This document shows positions 3,635 to 24,597 of a DNA stretch of 29,496 bases, piece by piece. The stretch's first letter is position 1. The number at the start of each line of letters is the position of its first letter. Origin of the DNA: an uncultured Methylophaga sp. (GTDB taxonomy: Bacteria > Pseudomonadota > Gammaproteobacteria > Nitrosococcales > Methylophagaceae); NCBI GenBank assembly GCA_964430395.1, contig CAYSGK010000003.1, positions 1 to 29,496 of the forward strand. The letters are read 5' to 3'. The notes below the pieces were generated by a model. The model made no database searches. It saw only the letters and a program-made list of their open reading frames with translations, and was not told where the DNA came from. Position numbers and translations under genes: made by a program.

Positions 3635-3775
3635 TATACCCGTGATACTTGAAGATGCAGAACTTACAACCGCGTCATTCCCGCATGCTGTTAGCGGGAA
3701 TCTAAAGTATTAAGTAGATCCCAGCTAAAAGCATACTGGGATGACGGGTGAATAAAAACATGCAGTTTCAATGAA
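3635..3775. mobile_element. Miniature element, copy 1: ERIC-like terminus plus inverted pair of CGTC-type REP hairpins
   Basis: Left end TATACCCGTGATACTTGAAGATGCAG. Hairpins CGTCATTCCCGC-atgctgtta-GCGGGAATC (3673-3702) and its inverted partner GATCCCAG-ctaaaagcata-CTGGGATGACG (3717-3746). Degenerate right end TGCAGTTTCAATG. Homologous to the copies at 12699, 21463 and 24489. Confidence 0.8.
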
Positions 3776-3788
3776 CATAAAATTTTTT

Positions 3789-3821
3789 GTCACTCCGGCT
3801 AGAAACCTACTGCAGTGACGG
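3789..3821. repeat. Single degenerate REP-like hairpin
   Basis: GTCACT (3789-3794) ... AGTGAC-GG (3814-3821), same foot sequence as the REPs in the other copies. Confidence 0.5.
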
Positions 3822-3867
3822 TTTTGATAATTGTAAATGGAATGATAACTTTGTTTTGGAGAAAATA

Positions 3868-5142
3868 TTGAGCAAAATTAGTAAAGTTCTAGGTCGAGAA
3901 ATTCTTGATTCACGTGGTAACCCAACGGTCGAAGCCGATGTGATTTTAGAAAGTGGTGTGATGGGGCGGGCAGCCGTACCTTCAGGCGCATCGACAGGGC
4001 AGCGTGAAGCCGTTGAATTACGCGATGGCGATCAGTCTCGTTACTTAGGTAAAGGTGTTTTAAAAGCCGTTGCGGCTGTTAACGGCGAATTAAGCGAAGC
4101 TGTTATTGGTATGGAAGTAACGCAGCAACAAGCTATTGATCAGAAATTAATTGCGGTTGATGGAACAGATAACAAGGCGCGTCTTGGCGCAAATGCTTTA
4201 CTAGCCGTATCTATGGCGGTCGCGCGCGCAGCAGCTAATGAAGCTGGATTGCCATTATATCGTTACCTAGGTGGTGATAGCGCTAGTGTAATGCCTGTGC
4301 CGATGATGAATATTATTAACGGCGGCTCTCATGCTGATAATAGTGTCGATTTTCAAGAATTTATGATTGTTCCTGTTGGGGCTTCTAGCATTACTGAGGC
4401 CATACGTTATGGCGCAGAAGTGTTTCATGCTTTGAAGAAAGTATTAAGCGAGCGAGGCTTAAGTACTGCCGTAGGCGATGAAGGTGGTTTTGCACCTGAC
4501 TTAGCTTCAAATGAAGCGGCAATTGAAGTAATTCTTGAAGCGATTGCAAATGCGGGTTATGAAGCGGGCAAAGATATTATGCTAGCAATGGACACCGCTA
4601 GCTCTGAATTTTATAAAGATGGTCACTATGTATTGGCTTCTGAAAACCGGACATTATCATCTGCTGAAATGGTTGATTTATTTGCATCATGGGTCGATAA
4701 ATATCCGATTATCAGCATTGAAGATGGAATGGATGAAAACGATTGGGATGGTTGGGAAGTATTAACTGACCGCGTTGGAAAACAAGTACAATTGGTGGGC
4801 GATGATATTTTTGTAACAAATACCACAATTCTACAACGGGGAATCGATGCAAAAGTGGCTAACTCAATCTTGATTAAAGTTAACCAAATAGGCACTTTAA
4901 CAGAAACAATTGCTGCGATATCGATGGCAAAAGAGGCGGGATATACCTCCGTTATTTCACATAGAAGTGGTGAAACAGAAGATACATTTATTGCTGATCT
5001 TGCTGTTGCAACAGGTGTTGGACAAATTAAAACGGGCTCATTATCGCGCTCTGATCGTATTTCAAAATATAATCAATTAATTCGTATCGAAGCAGAATTG
5101 GGCGATACTGCAGTGTACCCTGGAATAAAAGCCTTCACTTAA
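3868..5142 (+). CDS. eno: Enolase (probable TTG start at 3868)
   Basis: [51 protein letters not shown] Shine-Dalgarno 5 nt before the in-frame TTG gives [14 protein letters not shown] and 424 aa, normal enolase length. Confidence 0.98.
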
Positions 5143-5151
5143 GCTGATATT

Positions 5152-5439
5152 ATGAAAGCGACAATGATTTTACTTACGGTATTATTGCTATTGCTACAAT
5201 ACCGACTATGGTTTAGTCATGATGGTTTGCCAGCTGTTTTGCACTTGAAACAAGATGTTGAGATTCAGCGTCAAGACAATGAAAAACTAAAAGAACGTAA
5301 TCAAGTATTAACAGCTGAAGTCAAAGATTTAAAAAGTGGCCTTGATGCGGTTGAAGAGCGCGCACGAAGTGAGCTGGGCATGATAAAAGAAGGTGAAACA
5401 TTCTTTCAAATTATAGAAGAAGAAACAGCAGATGAGTAA
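5152..5439 (+). CDS. ftsB: Cell division protein FtsB
   Basis: LQYRLWF, coiled coil, AVEERARSELGMIKEGETFFQI; eno-ftsB-ispD synteny. Confidence 0.95.
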   Translation: MKATMILLTVLLLLLQYRLWFSHDGLPAVLHLKQDVEIQRQDNEKLKERNQVLTAEVKDLKSGLDAVEERARSELGMIKEGETFFQIIEEETADE

Positions 5440-6139
5440 TCCAGCCGTATGGGCGATTGTACCTGCCGCTGGTATAGGTTCTCGCATGCAAGCTGATCGC
5501 CCCAAGCAATATCTTGAGCTTGAGGGGCACACCGTTGTTGAACATACTTTGCAACGCTTAGCTTCACATAGTCGTGTAAAAGGGATCATTGTTGCACTTG
5601 CAGAAAATGATCCTTGGTGGCCTCAAGTATCAGTGAAGAGTGACACTGCTATTCATGTTGTTGTTGGCGGAGCACAACGTGCAGACTCTGTTTATAACGC
5701 ATTAGAAGCGTTGGCAAAAATCTCCAATGATGATCCATGGGTATTAGTGCATGATGCTGCGCGACCATGCTTACGACATCAGGATATTGACCATATGCTA
5801 GAGCAACTTTCCAATCATCCTGTCGGTGGTATTTTAGGGATCCCAGTAACAGATACGGTTAAGCGCGCTAATATCGAGCAAGAGATTACAGAAACAGTGC
5901 AACGACAGGGCTTATGGCGGGCATCGACGCCGCAAATGTTTAGACTCAAAACACTTAGAGATGCTTTACAGTTGGCCAAACAACAAAAATTAACAGTGAC
6001 AGATGAAGCCAGTGCAATTGAATTGACCGGATTAAAAGCAATGATGGTGGAAGGGCATTCAGATAATATTAAAATTACCGTGCCACAAGATTTAGCATTG
6101 GCTAAATTATTTTTACAGCAACAGCGAGAACAAATATGA
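5432..6139 (+). CDS. ispD: 2-C-methyl-D-erythritol 4-phosphate cytidylyltransferase
   Basis: [11 protein letters not shown]...[29 protein letters not shown]. Confidence 0.97.
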
Positions 6140-23506: not shown

Positions 23507-23515
23507 TGTACGAAA

Positions 23516-24193
23516 TTATTCAGATATATCAAGCATATAACCCATACCACGAATAGTATGAATAAGTTTAGGGTTAAAATTATCATCAATTTTAGAACGC
23601 AAACGTCGAATAGCGACATCAATGACATTAGTATCGCTATCAAAATTCATATCCCAAATTTGTGAAGCAATGAGCGAGCGAGGCAAGACTTCACCTTTAT
23701 GACGGATAAGTAGTTCCAATAGCAAGAATTCTTTAGCAGTCAATTTTATTCGTTGCTGAGCTCTAATTACGCGATGCCGCGTTAAATCCAATTCTAAATC
23801 TGCAATACTAAGAATATGATCATTTGGTATCTGAATACCACGGCGTATTATGGTTCGTACTCGTGCCAATAATTCAGAAAAAGCAAAGGGTTTAACCAAA
23901 TAATCATCAGCGCCTAATTCAAGGCCTTTAACTTTATCTTCGATGCTATCTCGAGCGGTAAGAAATAATACAGGCATGGTTTTATCAGCTTCCCGTAATG
24001 ATTTTAATATATGCCAGCCATCTAAATCAGGTAACATGACATCTAATATCACTAGATCATAAGGTTCTGTCATAGCATGATGATAACCATCCAGGCCGTT
24101 ATTAACGAGATCAACAACGAAGCCCGCTTCACTGAGGCCTTGTTTAAGATAATTACCGGTTTTAGCCTCATCTTCAACTATGAGTAACTTCAT
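23516..24193 (-). CDS. cusR: Copper response regulator CusR/CopR (OmpR family)
   Basis: [60 protein letters not shown]. Confidence 0.95.
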
Positions 24194-24280
24194 CTATCTT
24201 GTACCTTTATCAAATATTAAGATGCCTCAATGATAGATTAGAGATTACCTGATATTACTTTTAATTAAAAGAATTGTATC

Positions 24281-24398
24281 GAGACCTTTGCACGAGTCGT
24301 CTTTAGATCCTAGCGGTTACATCGTTTCGCCATGCCTGCGTTAAAAATAGTTTCAAAATGCTCATTTACACCAGTAAACTGCGCTTTAAAAACTATTT
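24281..24398. mobile_element. Truncated palindromic MITE-like remnant
   Basis: Starts GAGACCTTTGCA (recalled as an IS5/IS1106-type terminus); nested dyad AAATAGTTT...TTTAC-acca-GTAAA...AAACTATTT; no matching right end. Confidence 0.45.
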
Positions 24399-24445
24399 GG
24401 GGCTGTCCCAGATAACACATAAAATGTATTATCGAGGGCAGCCTC
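24399..24445. mobile_element. Empty 47-bp element made of two inverted termini, IS1016/IS1595-like
   Basis: GGGGCTGTCCCAGATAAC ... ATTATCGAGGGCAGCCTC imperfect inverted repeat; resembles the IS1016-group end GGGGCTGTCCTAGATAAC as recalled. Confidence 0.45.
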
Positions 24446-24488
24446 AAAAAAAATAAACGAAAAGAAAAAGGTCAAATCAGTATGGAAA

Positions 24489-24597
24489 ATTACTGGTGAC
24501 CATTGAAAGTACAGTTTTTACCTACCCGTCACTACCGCTAAAAACATGCGGAAGTGACAAAAAATATAAAGCTGCATCTTCATTGATTATGGATATG
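24489..24597. mobile_element. Miniature element, copy 4 (109 bp, single collapsed REP)
   Basis: Left ...GTGACCATTGAAAGTACAG, hairpin GTCACT-A-CCGC-taaaaacat-GCGG-A-AGTGAC (24528-24558), right CTGCATCTTCATTGATTATGGATATG. Confidence 0.75.

Follow-up and report, generated by a model that had tools for sequence, protein, structure and literature searches.

A miniature element of Methylophaga carrying a CGTC hairpin doublet between ERIC-type termini

Four of the five repeats that an earlier note had proposed in the window (the whole 29,496-nt stretch of DNA that was analysed) are genuine copies of one family of gene-less mobile elements of about 150 bp. All together, the data make it probable that these repeats are a non-autonomous element with terminal inverted repeats (TIRs), i.e. 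a MITE, of about 150-170 bp and assembled from two separable modules: ERIC-type termini and a core formed by a doublet of CGTC hairpins. The searched literature contains no paper listing this chimeric element.

Copies of the element in the window

The whole-element profile comprises 149 positions and was built from nine aligned full-length copies. The following features were assigned in the window:

3635..3777, minus strand: chimeric element copy 1 (profile match E 1.6e-34 plus module matches); intact terminus 3635-3660, hairpin units 3673-3704 (+) and 3715-3747 (-), truncated second terminus 3761-3777
3792..3821, minus strand: solo, degenerate hairpin unit immediately beyond copy 1 (weak hairpin-profile match, E 1.8)
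7680..7737, no strand assigned: copy 2 of the earlier note; unsupported as a member and at most a strongly decayed relic
12686..12700, minus strand: short terminus remnant (…TTGATTACGGGTA) abutting copy 3, read from the sequence
12699..12846, plus strand: chimeric element copy 3, complete (profile match E 9.5e-42 over model positions 2-149, plus module matches); terminus 12699-12726, hairpin 12737-12768 (+), hairpin 12780-12809 (-), terminus 12820-12846
21463..21615, plus strand: chimeric element copy 4 (profile match E 1.8e-34 over model positions 1-133, plus module matches); left terminus 21463-21489, hairpin 21501-21532, interrupted second hairpin, no right terminus
24489..24597, no strand assigned: copy 5, read as a 109-bp deletion derivative (whole-element profile at 24596-24531, E 3e-6, and at 24491-24537, E 8e-4)

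Specifically, the matches at 3635-3777, 12699-12846 and 21463-21615 (E 1e-34 to 1e-41) and the two-piece match at 24489-24597 uphold four of the copies first proposed, while the one at 7680-7737 is not sustained. In a 201-nt search space, neither the whole-element profile nor the terminus profile matched the latter region even at E<100. Its 26-mer agrees with the terminus consensus at 14 of 26 positions, as well as 3.6% of the TATA-starting 26-mers of the genome do, and its sole weak score comes from a 16-nt half-hairpin at 7726-7741.

The intergenic position of the copies, as first described, was borne out by gene context for all of them. Copy 1 lies between a DUF541 gene and an enolase gene; about 10 outer nucleotides of one of its termini have been lost and replaced by other sequence, and over 140 nt it equals, with no mismatch, two further copies of the genome (G000:C101:849-999 and C32:77-227). 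The neighbouring unit at 3792-3821 has a CCGTCAC head, an intact 3' arm and a mutated 5' arm.

Copy 3, flanked by genes for a TonB-dependent receptor and a histidine kinase, is the sole complete copy of the window, with both termini present, and folds into a long stem bearing two arms, each a hairpin (-43.4 kcal/mol, z -2.9). The remnant at 12686-12700, with no terminus-profile match at E<10, would be the right end of an element spanning 12528-12700; its junction with copy 3 has the GGGTA-(C/T)A-TA form typical for abutting elements. In copy 4, located downstream of an AcrB-family pump gene, the second hairpin is split by a 27-nt insert (about 21565-21591) which recurs in four other contigs (C67, C28, C262 and C25). 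Finally, copy 5 has two degenerate termini and one hairpin, with a GTCAC head on each side and a flipped loop. Its module matches are a terminus at 24596-24571 (E 0.34) and a hairpin at 24559-24535 (E 0.62), and its 24531-24558 segment shows 93% complementarity to 12739-12766. We read this copy as a single-hairpin derivative with an internal deletion; the two hairpins have direct-repeat arms, between which such a deletion could have taken place.

Mobility of the chimeric element

In the genome, the family profile matched 89 loci, of which 12 are nearly full-length. With a length of 148-169 bp, the chimera runs from TATA to TATA, and its 26-bp TIRs enclose a core in which two CGTC-headed hairpins face outward. 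The copies at C101:849-999 and C32:77-227 are identical at 151 of 151 positions and their flanks match at just 13/40 and 8/40, which sets the exact boundaries of the element. In addition, the site orthologous to that of copy 1 is empty in two relatives (G016 and G017), where it is 26-28 bp long. Identical copies in unrelated flanks, together with an empty orthologous site, show that the chimera is mobile as a single entity, in agreement with the spread first suggested. Both dispersed copies and insertion polymorphism, which characterise bacterial MITEs, are therefore found here.

With regard to the target, TATA is present at both ends in 104-106 of 110 paired elements. Abutting elements are joined by GGGTATATACCC in 40 cases, versus 3 and 1 for the alternatives, and share one TA, and no longer flanking direct repeat was found beside paired elements. 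The flanks of the empty sites in G016 and G017 are too diverged for a clean filled/empty comparison, and public metagenome contigs end at the elements without bridging any empty site. From the sequences we infer that TA is presumably duplicated on insertion.

ERIC-type termini

The terminus is a 26-bp inverted repeat of the ERIC type, with the consensus TATACCCGTGACCATTCAATCTGCAG. Its profile matched 139 genome sites at E<0.01 and none in the shuffled genome; the total amounts to about 155 TIRs (shuffled genome, 0), most of which border unrelated cores. In line with MITEs, in which TIRs of 15-30 bp surround a short non-coding core, these 26-bp termini bound 111 paired elements of 46-400 bp, drawn from the genome and from fetched loci. 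In the genome they also border the unrelated cores of at least five further MITE families, and hairpin-free paired elements measure 46, 53-63, 162-163, 206 and 263 bp, the 46-bp form consisting of the two termini alone.

In 62 cases, a solo terminus extends to the end of its contig. The elements break the assembly at these points, so copy numbers in metagenome-assembled genomes are underestimated.

No transposase with matching ends and no recurrent, IS-sized spacing of terminus pairs was found across this fragmented genome and roughly 0.8 Mb of sequence from other loci. Distant terminus pairs enclose housekeeping genes only, and PF13358 and PF01548 were not found in the 95%-complete, 330-contig assembly.

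The ERIC ends given in the earlier note agree with the consensus sequences of PMC2759123 (Table 1a), and the proposed likeness of our termini to them goes far beyond shuffled controls. The published left end of E. coli ERIC matches at 20-22 of 26 positions at 105 genome sites, versus none in the shuffled genome, where the maximum is 19. Both ERIC end flavours have counterparts (CCCGT… and CCCAA…, e.g. TATACCCAAAATACTTGAAGATGCAG), and a pattern covering ERIC and these ends together picks out multi-copy element families in six more families of Gammaproteobacteria (controls, near zero). This evidence makes it rather unlikely that the likeness is convergent or superficial, with the element belonging to a distinct MITE superfamily served by an unrelated transposase and 'ERIC-like' being a mere label. 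Such a reading would nevertheless account for the host lying outside the Enterobacteriaceae, for the lengths (148-169 bp for the chimera, and 46, 163, 206 and 263 bp for sister families, versus about 127 bp for ERIC) and for the lack of the 40-nt ERIC core, where the ERIC-PCR primers lie. As first noticed, this core is missing: its best match in the genome and the fetched loci is 25/40, equal to the shuffled control, and the element is for this reason not a member of ERIC. Moreover, no transposase is known for ERIC or for the family described here.

CGTC hairpins and GIY-YIG nuclease genes

The hairpin profile matched 103 genome sites and none in the shuffled genome, and the genome holds about 119 units. 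Each unit has an 8-bp stem starting with A-T and a 9-nt loop. Among 99 units, the stem is fully paired (8/8) in 78, with compensatory changes at 5 of the 8 pairs; pair 1 is A-T in 91, pair 2 is T-A in 80 (C-G in 16), and the loop measures 9 nt in 79. The heads are CCGTC (39), TCGTC (25), TTGTC (9), GCGTC (7) and others, and the tails CTA, CTT or CTG, with CCA in 7. Adjacent hairpins face heads-out in 29 of 34 pairs, and the majority of doublets occur by themselves. The unpaired (C/T)GTC head and the A-T/T-A stem of 8-9 bp are those of CGTC-tagged REPs, whereas the 4-5-nt loop and the CCA tail of the latter are not shared; within the CGTC REP/Ssn-related motif class, the hairpins form a variant specific to this lineage.

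The earlier note had linked these hairpins to RAYT nucleases, a link that our data contradict. CGTC-tagged REPs are described as having no dedicated transposase (Di Nocera 2013, PMC3733652), and no RAYT (Y1_Tnp, PF01797) was matched in the 95%-complete genome, in which positive controls were. The documented partner is instead the Ssn GIY-YIG nuclease, with its NTS/SRM repeats and SRM-ssn-SRM layout (Chenal 2025, PMC11893778). In relatives, heads-out hairpins flank small GIY-YIG genes on both sides, 5-60 nt away, at five loci (L143, L144, L145, L147 and L150), which reproduces the arrangement of hairpins around a gene of about 94 aa; at three more (L142, L151 and L152) the hairpin profile matched on one side, the other flanks being read by eye only. 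The encoded proteins (about 95 aa, single domain) match PF01541 only, and no solved Ssn structure was matched by them. Such genes occur in 10 of 40 genomes of the genus and in 7 of the 11 hairpin-rich ones; none was found in the hairpin-rich relatives G042, G052 and G054.

In the genome of the window, no intact GIY-YIG nuclease gene was found. A deletion relic is present at G000:C156:4894-5031, where a hairpin is followed by the last 14 or so codons of the gene (…WLDLYSSVC*; tblastn E 0.08-0.4 for these codons alone) and by a second hairpin. At least one doublet of this genome is thus a deletion relic of a GIY-YIG gene unit, which supports the derivation of the doublets from nuclease gene units. 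The published SRM search sequence is fitted by 20 of 119 units, most falling outside it because their loop is long, and has 26 genome matches versus 4 in the shuffled genome.

In conclusion, the CGTC hairpins of this lineage are likely partnered with putative Ssn GIY-YIG nucleases rather than with RAYTs. Since in relatives they flank a nuclease gene, the chimera joins two separate repeat systems.

Distribution and origin of the chimera

A terminus-pattern scan of 185,579 species genomes led to at least 111 loci; among the matches listed are Colwellia, Psychromonas, Pseudocolwellia, Alteromonadaceae, Methylophaga, Rheinheimera, Endozoicomonas and Endonucleobacter. This TIR is plentiful in several marine Gammaproteobacteria, including genomes of Colwellia, Psychromonas and Methylophaga, and three genomes contain 208, 252 and 119 terminus copies (controls, 0-2). 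Among the matches listed, all chimeric copies fall in Methylophaga or Methylophagaceae loci, and so do the hairpins, save one weak match (E 6e-4) in a Colwellia locus. Within the genus (40 genomes), at least 10 termini are found in 17 genomes, at least five hairpins in 11, and terminus-spacer-hairpin halves in 9; among these genomes and the matches listed, the chimera is confined to a subclade of the window's own, probably Methylophaga, genus (9/40).

These data bear out the modular build first proposed, as termini border many other cores and hairpins mostly lack termini, and they favour capture of the doublet by the MITE over a core native to the MITE lineage. In the latter case, stand-alone doublets would be old copies with eroded termini and no capture would have occurred. 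The graded series of partly truncated copies, with profile coverage beginning at model positions 13-35, would fit such erosion, as would the many different terminus-spacer-hairpin junctions and the presence of termini in all genus genomes with at least five hairpins, where both counts rise together. We nonetheless consider a native core quite unlikely. Of the 100 hairpin units analysed, 21 have a terminus match where one is expected, 7 are situated at the edge of a contig, and the other 72 show no such match even at E<10. In stand-alone units, the 14 nt beyond the heads are not conserved (33-46%). The hairpin pairs around the GIY-YIG genes of relatives have no termini nearby, and the deletion relic described above is found in this very genome. 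Furthermore, a genome of another family (G058) carries five such hairpins with termini at control level only, and CGTC hairpins are present in taxa without ERIC-type elements (PMC3733652). Conversely, termini are widespread without hairpins, as in TIR-only genomes of the genus such as G034, G043 and G005, and in the listed Colwellia and Psychromonas loci, with at most the one weak match.

Finally, it is highly improbable that the repeats are not mobile DNA but conserved, structured regulatory sequences (terminators, mRNA stabilisers or protein-binding sites) held by selection: their intergenic position, strong folds (z -2.9 as RNA, -5.0 as DNA), covarying stems and the known effect of ERIC and other MITEs on mRNA stability (PMC3184786) would suit that role, but identical copies sit in unrelated contexts, presence differs at one orthologous site, hundreds of copies have exact TATA boundaries, elements lie directly against each other, species of a single genus carry between 0 and 319 copies, and no Rfam family was matched. 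The elements may have a secondary regulatory effect, which would leave their spread unexplained.

Proposed mechanism and implications

The identical copies show that the chimera is copied as a whole, from one TATA to the other. In the mechanism that we propose, a transposase provided in trans would recognise the termini, insert the element at TA and duplicate this dinucleotide, abutting elements sharing one TA. The hairpins would ride along with the MITE, and a nuclease-target motif would in this way acquire a second route of spread, working in a genome where the nuclease gene was not found.

A broader scenario is offered only tentatively. The CGTC doublets could be gene-less miniatures derived from hairpin-ssn-hairpin units, and would then be to GIY-YIG nucleases what REPINs are to RAYTs. 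Their position between ERIC-type termini might have given them a second means of multiplying and of crossing species, driven by a transposase, which would keep seeding single-strand nuclease sites even where the nuclease has been lost; one selfish or domesticated repeat system would be hitch-hiking on another.

ERIC elements have been in use for typing for 35 years. Our data place ERIC-type ends, in hundreds of copies, in genomes beyond the enterobacteria (Colwellia, Psychromonas and Methylophaga), as a general vehicle for unrelated cores, and open many new genomes to a transposase search by phylogenetic profiling. In this lineage, the CGTC hairpins now have a likely partner, the recently described Ssn GIY-YIG nucleases, and a hairpin doublet inside MITE ends is a concrete, testable case of two repeat systems merging, in which recent, identical chimeric copies persist in a genome with no nuclease gene found.

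Comparison with known repeat systems

The Correia/NEMIS elements of Neisseria are likewise MITEs of about 100-160 bp, with 26-bp TIRs starting from TATA and TA as presumed target, and coexist with CGTC (dRS3) hairpins. Their TIR sequence is however unrelated, and their cores are not known to consist of dRS3 hairpins. REPINs and BIMEs, which are mobilised by RAYT (Y1 HUH) transposases, resemble the doublets in that inverted pairs of short hairpins outnumber the single-copy gene that they flank and look like miniature derivatives of the gene unit. They differ in their RAYT (PF01797), which was not found in the genome, and in their head (GTAG versus CGTC); here the associated gene of relatives is GIY-YIG, and some doublets lie between 26-bp TIRs.

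With ERIC, or IRU (RU-1; Hulton 1991; Wilson & Sharp 2006), the element shares the intergenic, gene-less, imperfect palindrome bounded by TATAC…GTATA, the two end flavours and 26-bp ends matching at up to 22/26 (consensus: PMC2759123). Core, length and host (Methylophaga rather than an enterobacterium) set it apart, as does the use of its ends by many unrelated cores, the hairpin doublet among them. As in the Ssn/SRM system (PMC11893778), the GIY-YIG gene of relatives is flanked on both sides and hairpins far outnumber genes, whereas the genome of the window has only the relic, few units (20/119) fit the SRM sequence, and SRM-type doublets are nested in a TIR element, an arrangement absent from that description. 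Lastly, CGTC-tagged REPs, including Neisseria dRS3, have the same (C/T)GTC head, 8-bp stem from A-T (often with the ATTCCCGC arm of dRS3) and inverted dimers without RAYT association; unlike them, the units described here have a 9-nt rather than a 4-5-nt loop and a CTN rather than a CCA tail, and about a fifth of them sit inside MITE termini.

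Copies of the chimeric element in the window

The chimeric element is a MITE of about 150 bp, in which 26-bp termini starting with TATA surround two CGTC-headed hairpins. By searching with a whole-element profile, built from an alignment of nine full-length genomic copies, the following family members were recognised:

12699-12846: copy 3, the only complete copy (E 9.5e-42)
3635-3777: copy 1, with about 10 nt of one end lost (E 1.6e-34)
21463-21615: copy 4, with the right end lost and a 27-nt insert in the second hairpin (E 1.8e-34)
24489-24597: copy 5, a 109-bp form recognised by two separate matches (E 3e-6 and 8e-4)

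The earlier note had claimed five copies, all intergenic. The four listed here indeed lie between genes: copy 1 between a DUF541 gene and enolase, copy 3 between genes for a TonB-dependent receptor and a histidine kinase, copy 4 downstream of the AcrB-family pump gene and copy 5 upstream of a multicopper oxidase gene. The remaining stretch, 7680-7737, matched neither the whole-element nor the terminus profile at E<100 in a search space of only 201 nt, and therefore we count four copies rather than five. Specifically, its putative terminus is identical to the consensus at 14/26 positions, a value equalled by 3.6% of the TATA-starting 26-mers of the genome, and it gives a weak score for a 16-nt half-hairpin only. 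Upon alignment of the five claimed stretches, three showed a long common architecture and a fourth shared the ends and one hairpin. The window gave no match in Rfam. The single hairpin of copy 5 is headed on both sides and has its loop inverted, a form that would derive from a deletion between arms repeated directly in the two inverted hairpins.

The 27-nt insert of copy 4 (…GAAACGAAGTAACCGCAGGGTAAAT…, window 21565-21591) recurs in contigs C67, C28, C262, C25, C172, C211 and C157 of the same genome (G000), always interrupting the second hairpin at the same point of its 3' arm; in the relative G016 (locus L145), the reverse complement of the insert is located immediately upstream of a GIY-YIG gene flanked by hairpins. 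Another insert, about 25 nt long (TACCCAGTCAAGCTGAGCACAAGCT), recurs inside the loop of some hairpin units (contigs C121, C172, C7, C104, C93 and C141 of G000) and may represent one more very small module nested within them; the sites recorded for it also include the loose ends of run X3 at position 21520 of the window. In addition, the window carries a dispersed repeat unrelated to the element, some 75-100 bp long (24300-24398; at least eight copies in the genome at 84-95% identity, with copies in the relatives G009, G010 and G016 at up to 94%), and a 67-bp direct repeat (24633-24699 and 27589-27655, 93% identical, with a 26-bp perfect dyad) that precedes two metal-related operons.

Anatomy and fold of the element

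The consensus has TATA at either end and consists of the 26-bp terminus TATACCCGTGAYCATTSAANNTGCAG, followed by a spacer of about 10 nt, a hairpin headed by CCGTCA, a linker of 11-15 nt, an inverted hairpin ending in TGACGG, a spacer and the inverted terminus; a second flavour, TATACCCAAGAGAAATCAATTTGCAG, is frequent at the right terminus. The whole element is predicted to fold into a long stem with two arms (copy 3 as RNA, -43.4 kcal/mol, z -2.9; copy 1 as DNA, z -5.0). Among 99 hairpin units, the 8-bp stem is fully paired in 78 and the loop measures 9 nt in 79, with YGTC heads and CTN tails, and compensatory changes affect five of the eight stem pairs.

Evidence of mobility

The element behaves as a unit with exact boundaries. 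Two copies, C101:849-999 and C32:77-227, are identical at 151/151 positions in unrelated surroundings (flanks matching at 13/40 and 8/40), and copy 1 is identical to both over 140 nt; further identical element ends are located at contig edges. In addition, the site of copy 1 is polymorphic, the intergenic space measuring 227 bp here, 26-28 bp in the relatives G016 and G017, and 354 bp in G009, where it holds several terminus and hairpin pieces. These data bear out the earlier proposal that terminus and hairpins have spread together, and point to recent copying.

TATA is found at both ends of 104-106 of 110 paired elements, with no longer flanking direct repeat. The junction between abutting elements, GGGTATATACCC, occurs 40 times, and versions with one TA fewer or more 3 times and once, respectively. 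The element proper would thus be TACCC…GGGTA, with a duplicated TA shared by abutting neighbours. An empty orthologous site for copy 1 does exist in G016 and G017, but its flanks have diverged and the comparison yielded no clean junction displaying the TA duplication. Contigs of four hydrothermal-vent metagenome runs covering 3400-23399 stop at the elements and provided no clean join across an empty site; for copies 3-5, synteny with the relatives is lost and empty sites were not recoverable.

Termini and hairpins are separable modules

The genome assembly (2.22 Mb, 40% G+C, 95% complete, the window being its contig C3) is fragmented into 330 contigs, with repeats partly unassembled. As 62 solo termini point off contig ends, the repeats evidently interrupt the assembly, and the copy numbers reported here are therefore underestimates. 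At E<0.01 the terminus profile detected 139 sites, rising to 155 at E<0.1, and the shuffled genome gave none. Strictly paired termini define elements of 46, 53-63, 162-163 (six copies, two families), 206 and 263 bp, all devoid of hairpins, which occur inside six paired elements only. The 46-bp element, present in seven copies (C32:4518-4563, C74:5912-5957, C174:1805-1850 and four more), consists of the two termini only, overlapping at a central CTGCAG, and no member of the terminus superfamily is smaller.

The hairpin profile, in turn, detected 119 units versus 0-1 in the control. When 100 units were examined for an adjacent terminus, one was correctly spaced and oriented in 21 and lacking even at E<10 in 72; the other 7 are at a contig edge. 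Heads-out doublets make up 29 of the 34 neighbouring hairpin pairs. In stand-alone units, the 14 nt adjoining the head on its outer side lack conservation, and the idea that the hairpin head (ACCCGTCA) is a shortened terminus (TACCCGTGA) was therefore rejected. All together, these data establish that terminus and hairpin modules are independent, in agreement with the modularity already claimed.

Candidate enzymes for the two modules

The earlier note had linked the CGTC hairpins to RAYT nucleases and called for a transposase with matching ends. The former link is contradicted by its likely source, Di Nocera 2013 (PMC3733652), which describes CGTC REPs without a dedicated transposase and equates Neisseria CGTC-1 units with dRS3. 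No RAYT (PF01797), IS630-type DDE (PF13358) or IS110 (PF01548) gene was found in the 330-contig genome, a result carrying little weight given the fragmentation. Sizes of terminus pairs peak at 46-60, 150-199 and 250-399 bp, with no IS-sized peak, and distant pairs enclose only ordinary genes (alginate lyase, helicase, ApbE, photolyase, LysR and similar), which dismisses an autonomous element between them; no transposase with matching ends emerged from this fragmented genome.

A different partner is known for such hairpins. According to Chenal 2025 (PMC11893778), the CGTC hairpin of Neisseria, named NTS and including dRS3, as well as motifs related to it (SRM), flank genes for Ssn, single-domain GIY-YIG nucleases of about 94 aa that cut NTS/SRM as single-stranded DNA. 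The one small GIY-YIG gene of the window's genome (C20:5145-5414) is not the hairpin partner, because its tight operon setting includes no flanking hairpins, and it is present in 37/39 genus genomes whatever their hairpin content. Distant paralogues appeared in the same search, and one of them, used as query, identified ten genus genomes at E<1e-30, seven of which are among the 11 hairpin-rich ones. In the fetched loci L143, L144, L145, L147 and L150, a 95-aa ORF has heads-out hairpins on both sides, 5-60 nt away; in L142, L151 and L152 the hairpin profile matches on one side, the other flank being assigned by eye only. The 95-aa proteins, one of them encoded at G016:C82:374-658, match PF01541 only, and a PDB sequence search with an Ssn-like protein returned weak GIY-YIG relatives (UvrC, SLX1, UPF0213). 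The hairpin-GIY-YIG layout is thus present in relatives.

The 95-aa gene was not found in the window's genome. At C156:4894-5031, a hairpin is followed by 24 nt, the last ~14 codons (…WLDLYSSVC and stop), the short spacer also seen in relatives and an inverted hairpin, the doublet linker being 75 nt; this locus is a deletion relic of a hairpin-gene-hairpin unit with an Ssn-like GIY-YIG gene.

Two further loci, L148 (G036:C4:32763-33044) and L154 (G006:C10:4103-4384), encode an 88-aa GIY-YIG protein 57% identical to the first type, with a different CGTC-headed hairpin just after the stop (…GATTGCTTCGC…GCTCGCAATGACG), which suggests a second putative nuclease-motif pair in the genus.

Distribution

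An exact-pattern scan for the terminus, with one genome per species, gave at least 111 loci; the matches listed include Colwellia, Pseudocolwellia, Psychromonas, Alteromonadaceae, Methylophaga/Methylophagaceae, Rheinheimera, Endozoicomonas and Endonucleobacter. Matches numbered 252 in Colwellia sp. RE-S-Sl-9, 208 in Psychromonas sp. PT13 and 119 in Methylophagaceae OZ252593, against 0-2 for the reversed control. In the Colwellia genome (source of locus L028), all 25 exact matches of one terminus flavour between 0.36 and 2.98 Mb lie on the + strand, and 12/13 from 4.26 Mb round to 0.31 Mb on the - strand; in the Psychromonas genome (source of locus L010), matches between 1.05 and 3.18 Mb likewise fall on the + strand only. 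Such a strong strand bias looks as though orientation were linked to replichores or to transcription. When 400 genomes sampled evenly across the class were searched with a pattern broad enough for ERIC as well as the present ends, six genomes, each of a different family, had multiple copies, and the two other genera sampled from the window's family had none.

Among the fetched loci listed, full chimeric elements occur in Methylophaga or Methylophagaceae MAGs only, as do all hairpin matches except a weak one in a Colwellia locus (E 6e-4), and on this basis the organism of the window is probably a Methylophaga. Within the genus (40 genomes, related to one another, so that counts are not independent), 17 carry at least 10 termini and 11 at least five hairpins, and five carry 17-50 termini with 0 or 1 hairpin. 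Terminus-spacer-hairpin halves are found in 9/40, from 46 (G036) to 10 (this genome), and comprise several kinds of spacer and of stem. In a 300-genome class sample, the hairpin pattern was multi-copy only in G058 (5), G326 (3) and G202 (3). Public runs containing the window are hydrothermal-vent metagenomes.

Origin of the element

The best-supported reading is that a CGTC/SRM-class hairpin doublet sits between ERIC-type MITE termini and is copied together with them. A trans-acting transposase would recognise the termini, duplicating TA on insertion; the doublet would have been captured by the MITE, and hairpin doublets would be gene-less derivatives of nuclease units. The alternative, that the doublet is the native core of the MITE, keeps some weight, since all 11 hairpin-rich genomes also bear termini and partly truncated copies exist. 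Against it stand the gene-flanking hairpins without termini, the C156 relic, the 72% of hairpin units lacking termini, and G058, whose termini are at control level.

Comparison with known systems

None of the parts of the element is new in kind, MITEs with ERIC-type ends, CGTC REPs and Ssn/SRM all being known. The part of the literature searched gave no description of ERIC-type ends from these marine lineages, of a single terminus shared by many different cores in this bacterial group, or of a TIR element with SRM-type doublets inside.

The ERIC ends given in the earlier note agree with the 127-nt E. coli consensus and the Salmonella variant printed in PMC2759123. Using the E. coli left end as probe, 105 genome sites matched at ≥20/26, compared to none in the shuffled genome (maximum 19); among 174 sites at ≥18/26, 139 coincide with terminus-profile matches, and variants such as TATACCCAAAATACTTGAAGATGCAG are like the other ERIC end. 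The absence of the 40-nt ERIC core was equally upheld, the best genomic match (25/40) being equal to the shuffled control, with the same outcome in loci fetched from other taxa. Since the ends match above control and the core is absent, the termini are, by sequence, of ERIC type and the elements themselves are not ERIC: the likeness lies in the terminal sequences, the difference in the missing core. As for Ssn/SRM, the likeness, seen in relatives, is that of hairpins flanking a small GIY-YIG gene, whereas the loop here is longer, and because of this only 20/119 hairpin units fit the published SRM search sequence.
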